From UHGV virus genome UHGV-0118448: DNA of 36,522 nucleotides; one strand, written 5' to 3'. Shown piece after piece: positions 1 to 24,834 of this stretch. The DNA comes from a virus. Position numbers and translations under genes: made by a program. The notes beneath the pieces are model-generated. The model was not told the DNA's origin. It did no database searches and saw nothing but the letters and a program-made list of their open reading frames with translations. Every line of letters starts with the position of its first letter. Within the stretch, counting starts at the first letter, position 1.

Positions 1-49
1 TGACGGGTAAAAAGTGGATAAAATAATTTTACCCACCGGATTTTTACCC

Positions 50-1207
50 ATGCTCACCGTTAAGCAGATTGAAGCAGCAAAGCCGAAAGAAAAACCATAC
101 CGCCTACTCGATGGTAATGGCCTGTACCTTTATGTCCCTGTATCAGGGAAAAAGGTATGGCAGCTTCGCTACAAGATTGACGGTAAGGAGAAAATCCTGA
201 CCGTCGGAAAATATCCGCTTATGACTTTGCAGGAGGCAAGGGATAAAGCATGGACCGCGAGGAAAGACATCTCGGTTGGCATCGATCCGGTAAAGGCGAA
301 AAAGGCTTCGTCTAACAACAATTCCTTTAGTGCGATTTACAAGGAATGGTACGAGCACAAGAAGCAAGTATGGTCAGTAGGGTATGCGACTGAACTTGCA
401 AAAATGTTTGATGACGACATTTTACCTATCATCGGCGGCCTTGAAATTCAGGATATTGAGCCGATGCAACTGTTGGAAGTAATCCGCAGATTTGAAGATC
501 GCGGTGCAATGGAGCGAGCCAACAAAGCCCGCAGAAGATGCGGCGAGGTTTTCCGTTACGCTATTGTCACCGGAAGGGCTAAATATAACCCGGCACCTGA
601 CCTTGCAGACGCCATGAAAGGATACCGCAAGAAAAACTTCCCATTTTTACCTGCCGACCAGATCCCGGCATTCAACAAAGCACTTGCAACATTTTCAGGA
701 AGTATCGTATCGCTCATTGCGACCAAAGTTTTACGTTATACAGCCCTAAGAACGAAAGAGCTTCGTTCCATGCTATGGAAGAACGTCGATTTTGAAAACA
801 GGATTATCACCATCGACGCCAGTGTGATGAAGGGACGCAAAATTCATGTGGTCCCGATGTCAGACCAGGTGGTTGAACTTCTCACTACGCTAAGTTCAAT
901 CACCAAACCAGTCTCAGAGTTTGTTTTTGCCGGGCGCAACGATAAGAAGAAGCCAATCTGCGAGAACGCGGTATTGCTTGTGATCAAACAAATCGGCTAT
1001 GAAGGTCTGGAAAGCGGTCACGGATTCAGGCATGAATTCAGCACGATTATGAACGAGCACGAATGGCCTGCTGACGCTATTGAAGTGCAACTGGCACATG
1101 CCAACGGCGGATCTGTGCGCGGTATTTACAACCATGCTCAGTATCTCGATAAGCGCAGAGAAATGATGCAGTGGTGGGCGGATTGGATTGATGAAAAGGT
1201 GGAGTGA
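50..1207 (+). CDS. int: Tyrosine integrase (P4/IntS-like, 385 aa from ATG 50)
   Basis: N-terminus MLTVKQIEAAKPKEKPYRLLDGNGLYLYV typical of arm-binding domain of P4-type integrases; C-terminal HGFRHEF box and conserved Tyr region (GIYNHAQY). ORF track starts at GTG 14; ATG 50 matches the family N-terminus. Confidence 0.9.
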   Translation: MLTVKQIEAAKPKEKPYRLLDGNGLYLYVPVSGKKVWQLRYKIDGKEKILTVGKYPLMTLQEARDKAWTARKDISVGIDPVKAKKASSNNNSFSAIYKEWYEHKKQVWSVGYATELAKMFDDDILPIIGGLEIQDIEPMQLLEVIRRFEDRGAMERANKARRRCGEVFRYAIVTGRAKYNPAPDLADAMKGYRKKNFPFLPADQIPAFNKALATFSGSIVSLIATKVLRYTALRTKELRSMLWKNVDFENRIITIDASVMKGRKIHVVPMSDQVVELLTTLSSITKPVSEFVFAGRNDKKKPICENAVLLVIKQIGYEGLESGHGFRHEFSTIMNEHEWPADAIEVQLAHANGGSVRGIYNHAQYLDKRREMMQWWADWIDEKVE

Positions 1208-1234
1208 TCCACCTTAACCACAATTGAATAGCAC

Positions 1235-1267
1235 AAAGCCTTGCAATTCAGTGCAAAGCTTTTTGTG
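1235..1267 (+). terminator. Imperfect hairpin with U-tract downstream of int (possible bidirectional terminator between convergent int and tailspike)
   Basis: aaagccttgca / tgcaaagcttt inverted repeat (one mismatch) ending in ttttt, located between the stops of two convergent genes. Confidence 0.4.
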
Positions 1268-1430
1268 TCTCAGTTTTGCCCCATCAACCACAGCAAGTCA
1301 TCGATCGATTAAGATTAAGTAAAGCTATCTGGAAACATATCTTTTTCTGTGTTCTTATTATTATGTAAATATAACCCCACTAATGTGAGGTTATTCTACA
1401 GAATATGTTAATTACCCAACCATCGAAATA

Positions 1431-3335
1431 TCATGCGGATGGCGCATAAATTCCGTTAAAGTTAATTGAAATATCGTAATGTTGCATGTTGGCAGGAGTA
1501 ATCAGTAAATCTCTAAGTGTAACAACCACCCAGGGATTATCAGTGTTTGCTTTATCACAATAAACTCTTGTCGTTGTGGTTGACCCGGCATATACAGATA
1601 CATTTGCCGCAGATAATGTTCCGTCACTAGTGGCGTAATATGTTGCTGATGGCATTGTTGCAGTGCGGCCATGCGTTATTTCCACGATGCCAGCACTCAC
1701 CACAGAAACAGAGATATTATTTCTAATCCACTCTGGGACACCAGAGCCTGAAGGCGGTCTTCCATAACGAATGACTCCTGTTTTTGTATTAACAATAAAA
1801 GAGACGTCGGCATACACCGTGATTTTTAAAGTGAATGCATTGCCAACACGAAGTGGCTCTGCGTAGGCCCTGGCACCTTCTATACCCATAGTGCGATTGA
1901 CATATGCTGTAGCATAAAACCAGTTTTCTGCATTGTCTGCAATTTCTACAGAAAAATATTCCCCATCAGCAGAAACAACTAATTTATGGGCATTGGAAAT
2001 TTTCCATTCACTGTTTACTTCTTTAGATAAAAGAACCCATTTATCGTTATCATTGCTGTATTTAATAGTACCAGCGACTAATTTTGATCTTGTCCAAGGT
2101 GGGGCAAAATTTGAATATTGCGCTAAATCGGTTGAGGTTTTATTACTCGCCCCTCCTTTGACTATAGACCATAACCCCCTAGCACCTTCTCGCCCCATCG
2201 TATTGTAACCACGTTGTGTATAATGGACGCCTCCATCGTAAGTGCCAATATTGCCATCACCTTTTAAAAATGAAGGACAACCATCAAATACTGTCACAGC
2301 ATCAGTTTTGTTATTACAAACCCATCTTTGTGCATTTTGAATAGCAGCCCATGATTCTTCCGTTCGGTTCCCAGGGCAACCAACGGTAAAATTACCAAAT
2401 AAATCAAAATTAATATCGGCTTTCAGGTCATCTATCAAGGCTATAAAGCGGTCTCTATAAGAATTGTATGTGGTTCCTGATGACATATCCGTTTCACCCT
2501 GATGGAACAATACATACGTTTTACCGACAGGCAGACCTGCGGCAACCATCGCCTTTTTAGCTGATACCACGGCATTCACCAACAGCGAGTAGTATGTTGT
2601 CCCTTTTGATAGATGTGCTATCGACATTGCGCCACGGCCACAATGTATCTCCACTGAACCGCGCCCACTAAGGCGATACCATTCATTCTCAAATTCTCCC
2701 CAGGCATGTCCTGATGATGCAACTCCTGAAGAACTAACCACATTCTGAATTATTGGCTTTATAGTTCCATCTTTAAAATCGTACATTAACGATTTAGGAA
2801 GAGGATCTGGAAAACCTGATGTATCACCTGATAAAATAGCCTCGCCTGCGCTATTTGATTGCCCATACGTAACAAACACATCATATACATTTGGCGACTC
2901 AAGGTATTCTGTTGCAATAACATTACTTGCTATTTTTGATGCGGTTACTCCAGATATCATTACTGTACTATTAGTTTCTGACAACCTGCTTTCTAATTGA
3001 TCTGGATCATACTTCAATACGTTTGGAAAATAGAATTGCTGCGAACCATACGCATCATAAACAGCCATAGAATGGCCTTGCACAGTTACGAATTTGGCAA
3101 TCTGTCCGTTATATACAGGGTAACCAGCAGCGTTAATGATGATTGGTTGAGAAACAGGAACGTGAGAGCCATCTTCGTTCTCCACATAAGCCTGAATCTG
3201 GTTTTCAGGATTTACAGGGTCAGTATCAATTTTACCGATATAAATTTTGCCATTAGCTACGGCTTTAAAGGAACGAGCCATAGTGAAGAGTTGCGAAGGC
3301 ATTCCAATTACAACATTTGGGGTGATTTCCGTCAT
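1431..3335 (-). CDS. Tailspike protein: P22 gp9-type head-binding N-terminus fused to a carbohydrate-esterase-like (GQSN / HQGETD) receptor-binding region
   Basis: From internal Met: [43 protein letters not shown] matches the P22 tailspike head-binding domain; AGGA Shine-Dalgarno 8 nt upstream of ATG at 3335; downstream motifs [14 protein letters not shown] and VLFHQGETD. Gene is AT-rich relative to neighbours. Confidence 0.85.
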
Positions 3336-3526
3336 GGGCGCAATCCTATTAGATTGACTCGATAAAGAAGAGAATGGAGTTAATGCTACAAATGACGCTA
3401 TTGATTTGAAAAATGATCTTCTGTTCATTTAAGACACTCTTTAAGCATGACATTTGGTAGTAATGTAAGAAAAAATTACAATCAACTCCATAGCTATTTA
3501 ATTTTTAAAAGTGATTCACACCTGCA

Positions 3527-11307: not shown

Positions 11308-12603
11308 TCACGCGGTCTGGTTAGGCAGACCAACACCAATTGCCTCTGGTCGTACAGCACATGCTGAATACCACACAGCAATACGGCACTTGCCAGACAG
11401 AGTGTTGATATCCCCCTGCGTTGCGAAGATGCCGTTAACACCAATACCAGGAATGCTGAAGGAAGAAGTTTTCATGCCAGCAAACAGTTCATGGGTTACC
11501 GGAATCGGCTGAGACAGCAGGCGGATTGAGTCATCAGCCCAGAACACGTTAGCGGTGGTTGTTGCCACGTTCAGAACGTTTACCGGAGTGGTATCAGCAA
11601 GAGAGGTGTTTACGTTAGCGTAAGCCTTCTCTTCTTTTGTCAGTGACGCGTCATCCAGCGCAATCGGCTTCGGCGTGATTTCGATGTGAGTACTATCGAT
11701 CACACGGGTGATTGAGAAAGTCGCGTCATCAGTCAGCACATTCTTCGCCATCTGAGACAGGAACTTCACACCAGTGAAGCTGATTTTGTCGCCGCGCTTA
11801 AATCCGGTGGTGGAGGATACGGTCACCGTTGCAACACGGTTGTCGACGTTCTCTTTGTTACCATCGGTATCAAGGGTGTATGCCTGCGGCTTAAACTTCT
11901 GCGCACCAGACACAGTTACACCAGTAGCGGTTGACTTGGTAACTGCCGGAAGTTTCGGTGAGCGAAGAATTTCATCAAAGCCAGCAATCTGACGCTGAAT
12001 AGTACCGTTGCGATACGCTTCTTCAGGAACGCGCCCGAAGATGTCACCATCTACAAGATTGCGGCCTGCTTTGCGGTAATCGTCAGGGTTCAGGAAGTAA
12101 CTGATGCCCATATCGCGGTTTAGCTCACGGGAGAACATCAGGCGCTCTGCATCAGACACAAAATCCCAGCCAGACAGGCCAGTAGATGGACCAATTGCGC
12201 GGGTATCGTGAACAACAAGTGAGCCCATTTCAGTTGCCTGTTTGGCAATTGCTGACTCAATGTTATTCGCCAGTTTTTTGGCGGATGCCTGGATGCGGCG
12301 ACGGTAAGAACGCTCATCACGCAGGTCATCTGCACGAAGCTCGAAGAAATCGTTATCCGGATCGCCCATGTTGCATTTCACGGACAGTTCCAGAATACCG
12401 GTAGCGTTGCCAGTTAAATCCCAGCCAGTCTGAGTTGGCGCTTCCTGCTCAACAGGCATCCACACGGTGTTGCTTGAACGTTGCATGGATTCTGCCGGAG
12501 GGGTGTATTTTGTCACTTTGGACGCCATTGGCGTCAGGTTCTGGACGGTTTCGATGATTTCATCCAGAGCATACGTGACCAGTTGACCTTCATTTAATGC
12601 CAT
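11308..12603 (-). CDS. Major coat protein (P22 gp5-like)
   Basis: 431 aa; [54 protein letters not shown] and C-terminal [14 protein letters not shown] closely resemble P22 coat protein. Confidence 0.95.
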
Positions 12604-13514
12604 TATCGAATTCCTTTATTCAGTTGCGCCTTGAGCTTGCGGTATGTCTCTACATCCCCTTTGTTTGCTGCCGCTTCCATCTGCTTTTCAATCGCAGATA
12701 TATTTGCAGCAACAGCGTGTCCCTGAATGGGTTCATCAGGTAGCGGGGCTTCTGAAACAGGTTTGGCTCGAGGCTTGAGAGTTAAACGTTCTGACAGTCG
12801 AGTGAGTTCAATCAGCGCGGATTGCCCGTCCATCGCCAGCAACTGGCGTGTTTTCTCAGGATTAGCACCAAGGTGATACATGAGAGCGGCGGATTTCTCC
12901 GGGAAGAGGCGCATGATGTCGGCACCGACTGCTGGCGGCACCAGTTGCATGAATGCATCCTCTTTCTCCTGATAGTCAGGGATATTGAGCTTTTCCGCTG
13001 CGTCGTAGTGCTTACGGGCTGCCTCGACGTATTGCGCTGATTGCTGGGTGAACTCCTGAGTTTTGCGACCCTGCTCAGCGACAGCCTGGCTTCGTGCGTC
13101 CATAGCCTTGATCTGCCATTCACTGTTTGCCTGCTGGAAGGCAGCCAGTGCGCGGCTCTGGTCATAGTCGTACTTAGCCAGCGCATCTTCGGAAAGATAA
13201 TCGTTAGGGTCTGGTTGTTTTGGTAACTCAGGGTTCACCCGCAGGTGCTCCGGCAACTCTCCACGCTTAACCGCTTCCATCTGCTGCTCAAGCTCACGCT
13301 GGCGTTTGCGTTCGATGCGGCGACGGGCAAATTCAGCATTAGTTGCCGGGTCTTGTTTTGGTTTCTCATCGTCTTTCAGGACAATCTCGAAGCCTTCTTC
13401 CTGACCTGCGTTGTCGTTGGCATTATCGACAACTAAGCCATCAGCAGATGCCGCTGCATGATTGCCGAGCAGGGTTAATTCTTCAGAAGCCTGAATGTCG
13501 GTGGTTTGGTCCAT
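12603..13514 (-). CDS. Scaffolding protein (P22 gp8-like)
   Basis: 303 aa, matching P22 gp8 length and sequence pattern ([13 protein letters not shown]..., C-terminal ...[15 protein letters not shown]). Confidence 0.9.
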
Positions 13515-13527
13515 GATTAACTCTCTC

Positions 13528-15693
13528 TTATTGAGGTGTCTCGGCTACTCCGCCGGAGGGGATTTGAACTTGACGCATAAGATTCGCGAAATCCATGCGT
13601 TGTGAATGAGTCTGGTCTGCATCTTTAAGAAGCAGCTCAGCGTTAGCACGAGCATCTTTGCTGCGCTGTTGCTGGAATTGACCTACGAGCTTGAGGTACT
13701 CACGCAGTTCTGCCTGCTTGTCGAGGTCCATATTGTTGAAGATTTCTGCAATCTTCGCGGCGTTGAGTTGGTTTTGGGCTTCAACCTTGGCAGCTTCAAC
13801 CTGAATCTGCGCCTGTTGGTTCTCTGCCTTGAGCAATTCAGCCTGACCTTGCAGAAGGATACCCTGCGCCTGAATTTGCTCTGCTGATGGCTGCTGCGGC
13901 TGTTGTTGTGCCTGCTGTACCATCTCCATCTCTTCAGGTGTTTCTGGTTTCTTCAGCCCCATCATCACCAGTTGCTTGTTCGCGTACTCTCGCATCATCT
14001 CAACGCCTTTACCGTCAAGCAGCGTGAAGTATTGCAGCATCAGCATCTGGAACTCTGGAGTACCTTGCGGAACCTTGGTGAGTAACTCCTGAATCTCTGC
14101 GCGGTTCTGTTCCTTCATGCTCTGGAAGGATGGCCCAACGTCTGTATAGCACTCATAGCGACCGCGAATGTCGTTGAGTGTGACCACATTACCGGACTGG
14201 TAATCTACAACTTGCGCGTAGAGTTGAACGTCTTTCTCGCTACCATCTTCAAGTGTCAGCGTTACATGACGAGGAACGTCATAAATATCGTTGACCATTG
14301 AGGCATAAATCTCGCCATCACGTCGCATTGCGGTAGCCAGGTTATCCTGAAACACGTATGTCTCAAGGTCTGCCCGCATGTTCAGTTGATTGACGGTATC
14401 GAAAGCGACCTGAGAGTTTGCCGCCTGCGCATCCACGCCAAGACTAGCCACCTCTTTCACTGCGTTGGTGGCAGCCTCAAGCATGTAAGCGTTGGCCTGC
14501 GGTACTTCAGGGTTTTCCATGTAGGAGATTGGACCAATCGGCAGGTCGTTACCGTTTTCATCGGTCCTGTTCTGCAGATAGTACGGATAGTCATCATTTC
14601 CACCGTACATGTATTCGTAGCCTTCGATTTGCTCAGGGAAGAAGGTCGGTTTCTTCTTCGGTGAACGAGCAACAATATCGGCGTTGAACGACATGATCAT
14701 GTTACGAAGGCGTTGACCGTCTTTCGTCAGCCTTACCACTCCCTCGTAGCACTCCTTGTCACCAGCGAATGACCATTCTCCATACACTGGAACGATTGGG
14801 ATATGCTCTCCGGCTATCTTTTCTCGGTCTTTCAGTATCTGCGTGCAGGTGATGATCGACTTATACACACGACGACGCTTCACCTTGCGCTCTGCTACCT
14901 TAATGAATCCACGATTAGCCAGGTCGTCGATAACGTCTTTAATATCCTGCTGGTAATAGCTGACTGGCTCACCTGTCAACGGGTCGCGGTAGATGAAGAC
15001 TTTCTCCTTCTTCTCTTCTACCTCGTAATACTCAGCGACGTAGACGACATCATTCGATACCCACGGAAACAGCCATGTGTCGTTCGGATTCTGGAAAGAT
15101 GGCAAGGTGTCCGGATCAATACCGTAATCCTCTGCGAACTCTTTCCAGCCATTGCGTGACAAAGCGTTAATCACCGTGCAGTGCTTAGCGTCGCTCTTAT
15201 CCATCTGCTTGCTGTTGGCGTCCCATATGACGTGTGAGCAGGCCTCATGGATTGGCAGGCGTCTGATTACCTGATTGTTGCTTGTTGGGTCGTTGTCTTC
15301 GTACTGGGTGACCAGACGCCATGCACCAACGCCGGACTCTATCTGCTCACGAACGCCAACGTTAACGGCAATCTTTGCCGTGTTATGGCGCATATCAGTA
15401 CGATACATTCCCATCAACACATCGGCAGCATCAGGATTAGCGCCGTCTTTGGGTCGGAAGAGAACGTCGATAGGGTTCCGGCGCATCTCTGCGACCAGTT
15501 TCCTGACCACCGGGCGAACAACATCGAATTGTCCGCGATATTGCAGGGTAGTGTAGTTTGATAGCCAGTCATCCCATTGCGACACTCGGCTAAAATACAG
15601 GTCATTTGTCGCCTCGGTTCTGGCTTCATCGCTCGCCATCCAGTCCGCGTCAAACTTACACAGAATGGAAATGAGTCTGTTTTCGTCGGCCAT
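13528..15693 (-). CDS. Portal protein (P22 gp1-like)
   Basis: 721 aa; conserved P22 portal blocks ([29 protein letters not shown]..., ...FNNMDLDKQ...). Confidence 0.95.
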
Positions 15694-22608: not shown

Positions 22609-23216
22609 GCGGCCTCACTTCTGCTATTTCGCAGGTCTTTGAGTTTCTGTTGGTACTCTGCCTTGATCGCCTTGCACTCTTCGATAGTCCAGCGATGGCG
22701 GTTATGGTTTGATTCGATTTCGTCTACTGCTTCCTGCCCGATGCGGATAATCAGTTCGACGCGATACGGAACGAGATTTCCGCTTTTGTGCTGGTTGCAC
22801 ACCACACATTGCTTGTGAATATTGCGTTCATCAAATCGGAGTTGAGGTGCCGCAGCAGTTGTCCGGTAATGTCCGGCATCCCACTGAGCAGACGTGAGCG
22901 TTCCGCACGAGATACATGGTAAGTCGCGGTCTCTTTCTCTGATGAAGGCGTTTACGGCTTGTTGGGCTTGTTTAATCCAGTAACTGCGGGGCTTTAAGGC
23001 GAGTTTTCGAATCTTAAGTTTATCTTTCTGTTTCTGCTCCTCTCGTCGTCGTTTCTTCTCTGCTGCTTTTTCCGCTTTTTCGCGTTCTTTACTTCGTCGT
23101 TCGAGTGCTATCTTGGTTCCACACTCTGGAGAGCACCACCACTGATTGGCGAATGCAGGGTGAAACCATTCCCGACATTCATCGTTTTTACATCGTCTTC
23201 GCGCTGGTTTAGCCAT
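22605..23216 (-). CDS. ninG: NinG (Rap) recombination-associated protein
   Basis: 203 aa, Cys-rich, lambda NinG-like. Confidence 0.9.
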
Positions 23217-23385
23217 CGTCTTCTTCCTCGTACATTGAGCTATTCGGATCGCTCATCAGTTCTGCGCAGCAGTGCTCACACACGTGAACTTCCAGCACAT
23301 GCAGCTTCTGACCGCAGTTAGCGCACGTTAATGCCCGCTCGACGCTTTCTTTCTGGTATTGAAGGGATTGGGATGGGCTAAGCAT
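23209..23385 (-). CDS. ninF: NinF (58 aa, not in ORF track)
   Basis: Hand translation [58 protein letters not shown]; CxxC..CxxC; overlaps ninG start by 8 nt. Confidence 0.6.
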
Positions 23386-23746
23386 TATTGGCGTCCTGAA
23401 TCATGAGAAAGACAATCATGGCGGCACGGAGTGGATTGTCATATGCGACACCAACATTCGGTCCGGCATCATCAAACAAGTCCCTTGCGTTGTCTGTAGC
23501 GCACGGCATTGAGGGATTGTCTAAAATTATGCTGATGTTGTTTTCAGTGATAATCGGCCATGCGTCTGATGGTCTTTTACAGTAATCAACCGTTTTTATT
23601 GCATAACCAGTTTCGTCATCCCACTCAACACCAACGATTGATGTTCCCAACTTTGCGATTTCGCAATCTTCGGGAGCAAATCCACAGCAAATTGCCACTC
23701 GCTTGTTAATTTCAAAATCACTTAACTGTGAATAATCCATTGTCAT
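23378..23746 (-). CDS. NinX-like protein (start MTMDYSQ, ATGA-coupled to NinE stop)
   Basis: Position between ninE and ninF as in P22 nin region; start codon overlaps upstream stop. Confidence 0.5.
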
Positions 23747-23919
23747 TTCCTCGCACGATGTCTTAGCCACCGGATATCCCACAGGTGAGCCGTGTAATTG
23801 AAGGTTTTTACGTCAGATTCTTTTGGGACTGGCTTGCGTTTATTTCTGGAGCGTTTCGTTGGAAGGTATTTGCAGTTTTCGCAGATGATGTCGGTGAAAC
23901 TTCGTCGCTGTCGCCTCAT
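23743..23919 (-). CDS. ninE: NinE (58 aa, not in ORF track)
   Basis: Hand translation [58 protein letters not shown]; AGGAGGT Shine-Dalgarno 6 nt upstream. Confidence 0.6.
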
Positions 23920-24326
23920 TCGTACCTCCTGTCGGTAAATCTGACACCATGACCAATAGCCCAGGCTGTTGTGTACTCGATAAGACTTGCCATACGCTTC
24001 ACACTCATCTGCGCGCTGCTTTCGCGAATGTTGACGTATTCGCCTTCAAGCCCGGGCAAAACATCAGCTTCCTGCTTTGTTGCCACTGCATGACCGCTAA
24101 TCAACAAAACCTTCCATTGTTCCGGTTTTAACCATTTGCCGCACCATTGAACCTGACGAGCGATATCCGCCAGCATCGCGTGAAATTTTGCGTTCTGGTC
24201 AAGGTTGCGCTTGTAGTCAGTAATGCGGATGGTGACTGGCTTGTCTTTATCGAGAGGAGTTTCGAGGATGGCGTTGATTGCGGCTTGCTGTTGTTGCTTA
24301 GTTCGGAGGAAGATTGTTTGCTTCAC
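23916..24326 (-). CDS. ninB: NinB / Orf recombination mediator
   Basis: [33 protein letters not shown] pattern parallels lambda NinB. Confidence 0.8.
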
Positions 24327-24337
24327 TGAATACTCCT

Positions 24338-24529
24338 TTATTTTTTATGCCTGTAACCCCATTCTTCCAGCAACCTTGCGGCGTACCACCCAAGAAACAA
24401 AGGAAAGAACATTACAATGAGATATTCCCCGCCACGGTCAATGTTCGAAATTGACCAGATTACGATGTAACCAGTGCAGGACAGGAATATTACAAACCCC
24501 AAAAAGCTACTTCGTCGACTCATGCTCAC
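24338..24529 (-). CDS. Hypothetical small membrane protein
   Basis: 63 aa, two hydrophobic segments; start overlaps upstream stop. Confidence 0.35.
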   Translation of the reverse strand: MSMSRRSSFLGFVIFLSCTGYIVIWSISNIDRGGEYLIVMFFPLFLGWYAARLLEEWGYRHKK

Positions 24530-24834
24530 TCCTTCACTTTGATTCCAGCGGCGCGGATAGCCTCTACATCGCTTTCGTATTGCGATTCTGCACCTGAGTC
24601 ATAGCCAATGTGATAATCACCGGGAAGTGGGCCTTTCTTTGGCTTTTGCAGCTCAATCTCGATAGCTGCTCGCGATGCCTGCCATAAAGTCCACCACTCA
24701 TTTAAGGAGTGACGAATATCCATGCTTGAAAATGCGAAGTACCTATCACCATTTCTTGCCTCGGTTATCATCTCGAATGGTAATTTCAATTTTTTGGCAA
24801 CGTATTCCTCAAACTTCTTTCTTGATTCGTCCAT
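24526..24834 (-). CDS. Hypothetical protein (nin-region)
   Basis: 102-aa ORF in operon context between helicase and ninB. Confidence 0.5.
   Translation of the reverse strand: MDESRKKFEEYVAKKLKLPFEMITEARNGDRYFAFSSMDIRHSLNEWWTLWQASRAAIEIELQKPKKGPLPGDYHIGYDSGAESQYESDVEAIRAAGIKVKE

Follow-up and report, generated by a model that had tools for sequence, protein, structure and literature searches.

The window, that is, the whole 36,522-nucleotide stretch of viral DNA that was analysed, is from a P22-like (Sf6-like) temperate E. coli phage carried as a prophage at tRNA-Arg (argW). Its tailspike gene lies on the minus strand and closes the late operon after the ejection-protein genes, the position that this gene takes in P22-like phages. 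The genes upstream on the same strand encode a gp16-like SLT ejection protein, an injection translocase, gp7, gp10/gp26-type tail proteins, coat, portal and terminase; the domains recognised among them are P22_gp16/SLT, Inj_translocase, P22_gp7, Phage_stabilise, P22_Tail-4 and P22_CoatProtein. The gene downstream of the tailspike encodes an IntS-type integrase (Table 1). In public assemblies that carry an identical gene, the tailspike was always the final late gene and adjoined the integrase and tRNA-Arg/yfdC. With the exception of the tailspike body, the first 12 kb of the window were 95-97% identical to many E. coli prophages. Promoters and terminators were scanned for around the tailspike gene, and nothing exceeded the shuffled expectation.

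Only a short AT-rich spacer was found between the tailspike and integrase genes. At the same genomic position, Sf6 and the related E. coli G3 prophage carry O-antigen conversion genes (oac, gtr). The prophage in the window appears to be without a classical serotype-conversion module between tailspike and int.

The start of the gene was assigned by comparison. Counted from its first ATG in the ORF listing, the minus-strand open frame covers 1431..3428 (665 codons). The P22/Sf6-type N-terminus MTEITPNVV begins at residue 32 of this long frame, and a start at 3335 gives a protein of 634 aa. An identical protein turned up in at least 36 collection blocks and was annotated in at least 24 public contigs, where the start was also the equivalent of 3335.

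Table 1. Positions of the tailspike gene, its predicted parts and related features (window coordinates unless another locus is named)
Feature	Residues	Position	Strand	Remarks
Tailspike gene	1-634	1431..3335	minus	634 codons + stop; stop codon 1431-1433; coding 3335 down to 1434
P22/Sf6-type head-binding (virion-attachment) domain	1-113	2997..3335	minus	Pfam PF09008
Linker and recombination junction	114-150	2886..2996	minus	DNA similarity to other tailspike genes stops here
SASA/CE6-type SGNH esterase domain	151-395	2151..2885	minus	
GQSN (block I), predicted nucleophile Ser160	158-161	2853..2864	minus	YGQSN invariant, 42 homologues
HQGETD (block III)	278-283	2487..2504	minus	H, G and E of HQGE invariant, 42 homologues
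DGGVHYTQ (block V), predicted general base His371, likely acid Asp367		2214..2237	minus	G-x-H-Y-x-Q invariant
C-terminal region, two beta-sandwich domains	412-634	1434..2102	minus	
In-frame 31-codon extension upstream of the canonical start, twin-arginine-like leader		3336..3428	minus	In-frame reading
Leader in other retrieved loci		L001 6906-7001; L015 4599-4691; L017 3109-3204; L018 3005-3097		
IntS-type integrase		14..1207	plus	Downstream of tailspike
Tailspike-integrase spacer		1208-1430		223 bp
wzx/acetyltransferase pair		MS 115-1 retrieved locus 23024-24787; EC6622 retrieved locus 12115-13878		Outside main O-antigen cluster

Domain architecture and catalytic motifs

The first-pass annotation had assigned the first ~110 residues to the P22 tailspike head-binding domain, and the profile search agreed: Pfam Head_binding matched aa 1-113 with E=9.2e-65. 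In a PDB sequence search, Sf6 gp14 (7sg7) matched aa 1-119 (E=2.3e-65) and P22 gp9 was also recovered. Tailspike matches in the PDB were confined to aa 1-119, and the remainder of the protein gave only a weak match to 1zmb. PHROG matches were likewise restricted to the head-binding domain. Colanic-acid degradation, the name of the best PHROG, was dropped as evidence since that match spans aa 1-132 and covers the head-binding domain only.

The body of the protein had been described as carrying the esterase-type motifs GQSN and HQGETD. Both were located there, and their conservation was scored across 42 homologues with identity down to 29%. In the domain search, aa 151-383 matched SASA (PF03629), the Pfam family of sialic acid-specific acetylesterases among the carbohydrate esterases. 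The match had E=2.4e-12 and scored 47.4 bits, where the curated threshold is 24.8, and it spanned profile positions 2-219 of 226. The nucleophile Ser160 and the block V His371 were invariant in the 42 homologues, as in SASA/CE6 enzymes. The second residue of HQGETD (Q; H in two sequences) and its D (N in three) were at least 90% conserved, and the S, G, H, A and W of an S-x-G-H-A-W motif at aa 207-212 were invariant. In nearly all 42 homologues, an acidic residue stood 3-4 positions N-terminal of the block V His. Most relatives have E-G-V-H at this site, whereas the spike in the window belongs to a subgroup with one extra residue (D-G-G-V-H), and from this alignment Asp367 is the likely acid of the triad.

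Together, the invariant Ser, the H, G and E of HQGE and the block V His form the pattern expected of a working serine esterase, and the domain is predicted on these residues to be an active serine O-acetylesterase. The same conservation, held over 42 homologues to 29% identity, speaks against a catalytically silent glycan-binding module of esterase fold, with which the spike would merely bind its receptor. There are receptor-binding proteins whose enzyme fold is inactive, the acid of the subgroup is shifted by one residue, and sequence cannot reveal activity, a point that PMC13123978 stresses for depolymerases; a silent module is nevertheless considered improbable.

An AlphaFold2 monomer model of aa 116-634 was computed from the 42-sequence alignment (mean pLDDT 83, pTM 0.80). 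The model consisted of an alpha/beta domain (about aa 150-395) with the alpha/beta/alpha fold of SGNH enzymes, followed by all-beta domains. The linker (aa 114-150) was modelled with low pLDDT and contained one short helix. A right-handed parallel beta-helix was absent from the model and from the significant fold matches, which bears out the earlier view that the body is not the P22 endorhamnosidase beta-helix. The top Foldseek matches were 1zmb, 2apj, XAC1771 (7kmm), the Pan3 tailspike, mammalian SIAE and a deacetylase named FI8. These matches place the esterase within the SGNH superfamily in its SASA/CE6/NanS branch.

Taken literally, the Pfam and PGAP names would make the domain a genuine sialate O-acetylesterase whose substrate is O-acetylated sialic acid, for instance in K1 polysialic acid or sialylated O-antigens. 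This is very improbable. The plant and clostridial CE6-like esterases that head the fold matches are not sialate-acting, and the homologues, which include Klebsiella, Hafnia, Lelliottia and Enterobacter (prophage) proteins and a Vibrio phage protein, show no sialic-acid link. No sialic-acid biosynthesis genes were seen in the O-antigen loci of E. coli MS 115-1 and EC6622, the two genomes with the full-length gene that are described below.

The C-terminal beta-sandwich domains probably serve in trimerisation and/or glycan binding, and the spike would be a homotrimer. In the second of these domains, His555 (ITHGRT, aa 553-558, nt 1662-1679) was invariant in 42/42 homologues; the domain was otherwise poorly conserved.

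Composition and module exchange

The low GC content of the gene had been read earlier as a sign of module swapping. The gene was indeed more AT-rich (GC 0.412, GC3 0.30-0.35) than seven other late genes (GC 0.506-0.519, GC3 0.45-0.58). The conserved head-binding part was, however, as AT-rich as the receptor-binding part (GC 0.406 vs 0.413), so low GC extends over the whole gene and is no specific mark of a swapped module. Swapping itself is supported by direct evidence that outweighs composition, namely the variety of anchors ahead of related bodies and the end of DNA similarity at the junction.

The tailspike gene was searched by megablast against 5426 complete E. coli genomes. Its first ~340-390 nt (codons 1 to about 114-128) had matches of 87-93% identity in over 1000 of them; the whole gene was present in only two, MS 115-1 (91.8%) and EC6622 (89.6%). 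In a homologue profile, aa 114-150 aligned with the L-R-x-x-L-A linker that closes the anchor domains of the CBA120, Moo19 and SFP21A spikes.

With aa 116-634 as the query, 81 related proteins were retrieved, from hosts that include E. coli, E. fergusonii, Enterobacter, Hafnia and Lelliottia. The N-termini that precede the homologous body were of the P22 head-binding, Tail_spike_N (PF18668) or T7 tail-fibre (PF03906) type, or were unclassified. Among sequenced phages, the body had counterparts at 51-54% identity in a tail protein of Klebsiella phage KP8 and in several T7-like phages of Klebsiella, where the counterpart is the second tail protein. Identity to a protein of a Vibrio phage, annotated SGNH, was 27%. 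Since one receptor-binding module is found on P22-, Tail_spike_N- and T7-type anchors and in Klebsiella phages, module shuffling is real.

A gene of E. coli IH5 that appears as a sialate O-acetylesterase next to fliF (95% identity) was ignored, as it lies in a patchwork of truncated gene fragments. The stretch in question (NZ_CP168949.1, 5073941-5090521) is made up of truncated unrelated fragments (pdu, T6SS, wca, fli, phage and others) and includes a 95%-identical piece of the tailspike esterase domain. The stretch resembles a chimeric assembly, or contigs strung together, rather than a true gene order.

Candidate receptor and proposed mode of action

In MS 115-1 the prophage with the full-length gene is located near bioA/ybhB, whereas that of EC6622 is at argW, and the main O-antigen gene sets (glycosyltransferase/wzy) of the two strains differ as well. 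Both strains carry an O155-family Wzx flippase and a 155-aa hexapeptide-repeat acetyltransferase (Pfam Hexapep) between gnd and ugd; the two Wzx proteins are 90% identical and the two acetyltransferases 87%. Only 10 of the 5426 complete E. coli genomes had the pair at full length; strains designated O155 and O155:H21 are among them. Both spike carriers fall inside this 0.2% class, with a naive chance of ~3e-6 for n=2 genomes whose ancestry at the locus is possibly common. The presence of so rare a pair in both carriers suggests an O-acetylated O-antigen as the receptor, and on these two genomes an O-acetylated O155-type O-antigen is suggested as receptor and substrate. The hexapeptide transferase could instead be an N-acetyltransferase of sugar-nucleotide synthesis. 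The association with the O155-family pair offers a definite hypothesis on the receptor, and one that is cheap to test.

Jointly, these data make it probable that the spike docks in the P22 manner, recognises an O-acetylated surface polysaccharide and de-acetylates it without cleaving the chain. The architecture, fold, catalytic-motif conservation, module mobility and host association that underlie this reading were observed; from them we infer the esterase activity, the substrate, the trimeric state and the role in adsorption. The mechanism is proposed by analogy with the spikes of phages G7C (gp63.1) and Moo19/B2. Residues 1-113 would dock the spike on the tail hub, as in P22 and Sf6, and receptor modules would be exchanged by recombination at the short linker. 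Six trimeric spikes would bind acetylated repeat units of the O-antigen, and Ser160 would attack the acetyl ester, with His371 as base and Asp367 as the likely acid. Product release would lower the affinity, and the virion would work its way by binding and release, as shown for gp63.1, to the outer membrane, where the P22-type needle and ejection proteins would act. The most likely substrate would be the O-antigen of strains with the O155-family wzx and hexapeptide acetyltransferase. Through its putative role in adsorption, the spike would determine which hosts are open to this prophage, which recurs in E. coli.

The enzyme might also be an active O-acetylesterase with a substrate other than O-antigen, such as colanic acid (which is O-acetylated), a group 1/4 capsule or another exopolysaccharide. 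The nearest phage relatives have encapsulated Klebsiella as hosts, on which phages usually use the capsule as receptor, and the hosts of the spike possess colanic acid clusters that include acetyltransferase genes (wcaF). Colanic acid is nearly universal in E. coli, yet the spike is rare (2/5426 complete genomes), and it co-occurs with a rare acetyltransferase/flippase pair of the O-antigen locus. O-antigen is, moreover, the characteristic receptor of E. coli and Shigella P22-like phages, and P22, Sf6 and HK620 all use it. A non-O-antigen substrate is accordingly rated as unlikely, and de-acetylation of an O-antigen is retained as the preferred reading.

The extension upstream of the canonical start was analysed separately. 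Its motif N-R-R-S-F-F-K, followed by a hydrophobic core (mean Kyte-Doolittle 1.28), agrees by eye with the Tat motif pattern. In MS 115-1 and in phages Bas106, APC_JM3.2, Dewey, Huey and Louie, the DNA of the leader is strongly diverged and is still in frame (MKRRTLLKSLLGLTSLLPVKFAASQNLQGKSI). Further leader variants stand ahead of tailspikes with other bodies in phage JEP4, E. coli G3 and 504239; the leader is not confined to spikes with an esterase body. The frame, the motif RR-x-(F/L)-(F/L)-K (RRSFFK / RRTLLK / RRLFFK) and the hydrophobic core are preserved in four diverged variants of 31-32 codons. The leaders of the window and of JEP4 differ in 23 codons, 11 of them synonymously, and this argues that the coding sequence is under constraint. 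The GenBank CDS of JEP4 and Bas106 begin at the upstream ATG; Sf6 and EC6622 are without the leader. Searches of three variants against Tat-signal profiles gave no Pfam or NCBIfam match at E<=10, a setting in which HMMER filters may drop such short motifs.

A similar layout is found in Pantoea WceF (6tgf, also matched in the PDB search), where a Tat signal directly precedes a P22-like head domain (PMC7949094). WcaM was tried as a relative of the leader and head-binding layout, and no similarity was found.

Two in-frame starts could provide both a virion spike and a Tat-exported esterase isoform that would strip the lysogen's own O-acetyl receptor. We give this possibility little credence. If true, the tailspike itself would bring about receptor-destroying lysogenic conversion or superinfection exclusion, and would do so in a prophage without gtr/oac genes between tailspike and int.

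Comparison with known tailspikes and esterases

With P22 gp9 and Sf6 gp14 the spike has in common the N-terminal domain (aa 1-119 are nearly identical to Sf6 gp14) and the genome position. The bodies of those two spikes are right-handed beta-helix endorhamnosidases, in contrast to the body described here, in which no beta-helix is found. Spikes of P22-like phages are easy to purify and crystallise, and the tail machines of P22 and Sf6 have been solved structurally. The present spike would therefore be a convenient model, an esterase body without a rigid beta-helix mounted on a well-understood tail.

The structural relatives At4g34215 (2apj), the C. acetobutylicum protein 1zmb, E. coli NanS (3pt5) and XAC1771 (7kmm) are free one- or two-domain enzymes at 14-18% identity, whereas here the SASA/CE6-like domain is embedded in a spike, between head-binding and beta-sandwich domains. 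The tailspike of cyanopodophage Pan3 (PDB 9vyh) is 16% identical, serves a cyanobacterial host and has another anchor; a literature search found no publication on its structure.

Close homologues occur in Klebsiella phages. Gp84 of the N4-like phage KP8, annotated SGNH, and the second tail protein of the Przondovirus phages VLCpiA3a/b, K48PH164C1, AHF00 and TVB03 are homologous across the esterase and C-terminal domains (51-54% identity over aa 107/150-632). They differ in their anchor, which is N4-like or a T7-like, adaptor-dependent short protein, and in their hosts and presumably their glycans. KP8 gp84 has been detected in purified virions (PMC6950046). Two Klebsiella podoviruses are noted in PMC9989827 to encode 'acetyl xylan esterases' that replace depolymerases. 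In Acinetobacter phages and prophages (Phab24, DMU1), SASA-like 'sialate O-acetylesterase' tailspikes that deacetylate capsule have been proposed from HHpred and AlphaFold (PMC11126041, PMC12115436). These belong to the same esterase sub-family, with unrelated anchors and hosts, and no close sequence similarity to them was detected in our searches.

G7C gp63.1 (PDB 4QNL), Moo19 gp82 and B2 gp48/49 are likewise virion spikes with a receptor-modifying esterase of SGNH fold. The first-pass annotation had suggested a comparison with esterase tailspikes of the G7C gp63.1 type. The parallel holds for architecture, in that an esterase takes the place of a depolymerase on the virion spike and no depolymerase fold is present, but it does not extend to sequence: homology to the esterase domain of gp63.1 was not found, and the two have only the superfamily fold in common. 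As cited in PMC13123978, gp63.1 removes O-acetyl groups from the O-antigen without cleaving it, and infection requires this step. Receptor-binding proteins with esterase domains are by now recognised as common, and activity on pNPA has been seen for SGNH tail fibres of prophages in Klebsiella. The spikes of the Shigella phages Moo19 and B2 also hydrolyse pNPA, and infection by these phages depends on O-antigen acetylation (PMC11654681).

All the components of the present spike are already known, that is, the P22-type anchor, the SASA-type esterase, the deacetylating spike and the occurrence of the module in Klebsiella phages. Public databases already list proteins of exactly this architecture under the name 'phage tailspike protein'; a literature search found no published description of a P22-like phage with an esterase spike. 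Current understanding is not overturned by this example. With its predicted activity, a P22-type virion would join the receptor-deacetylating phages alongside G7C, Moo19/B2, the Klebsiella prophages and the Acinetobacter phages.
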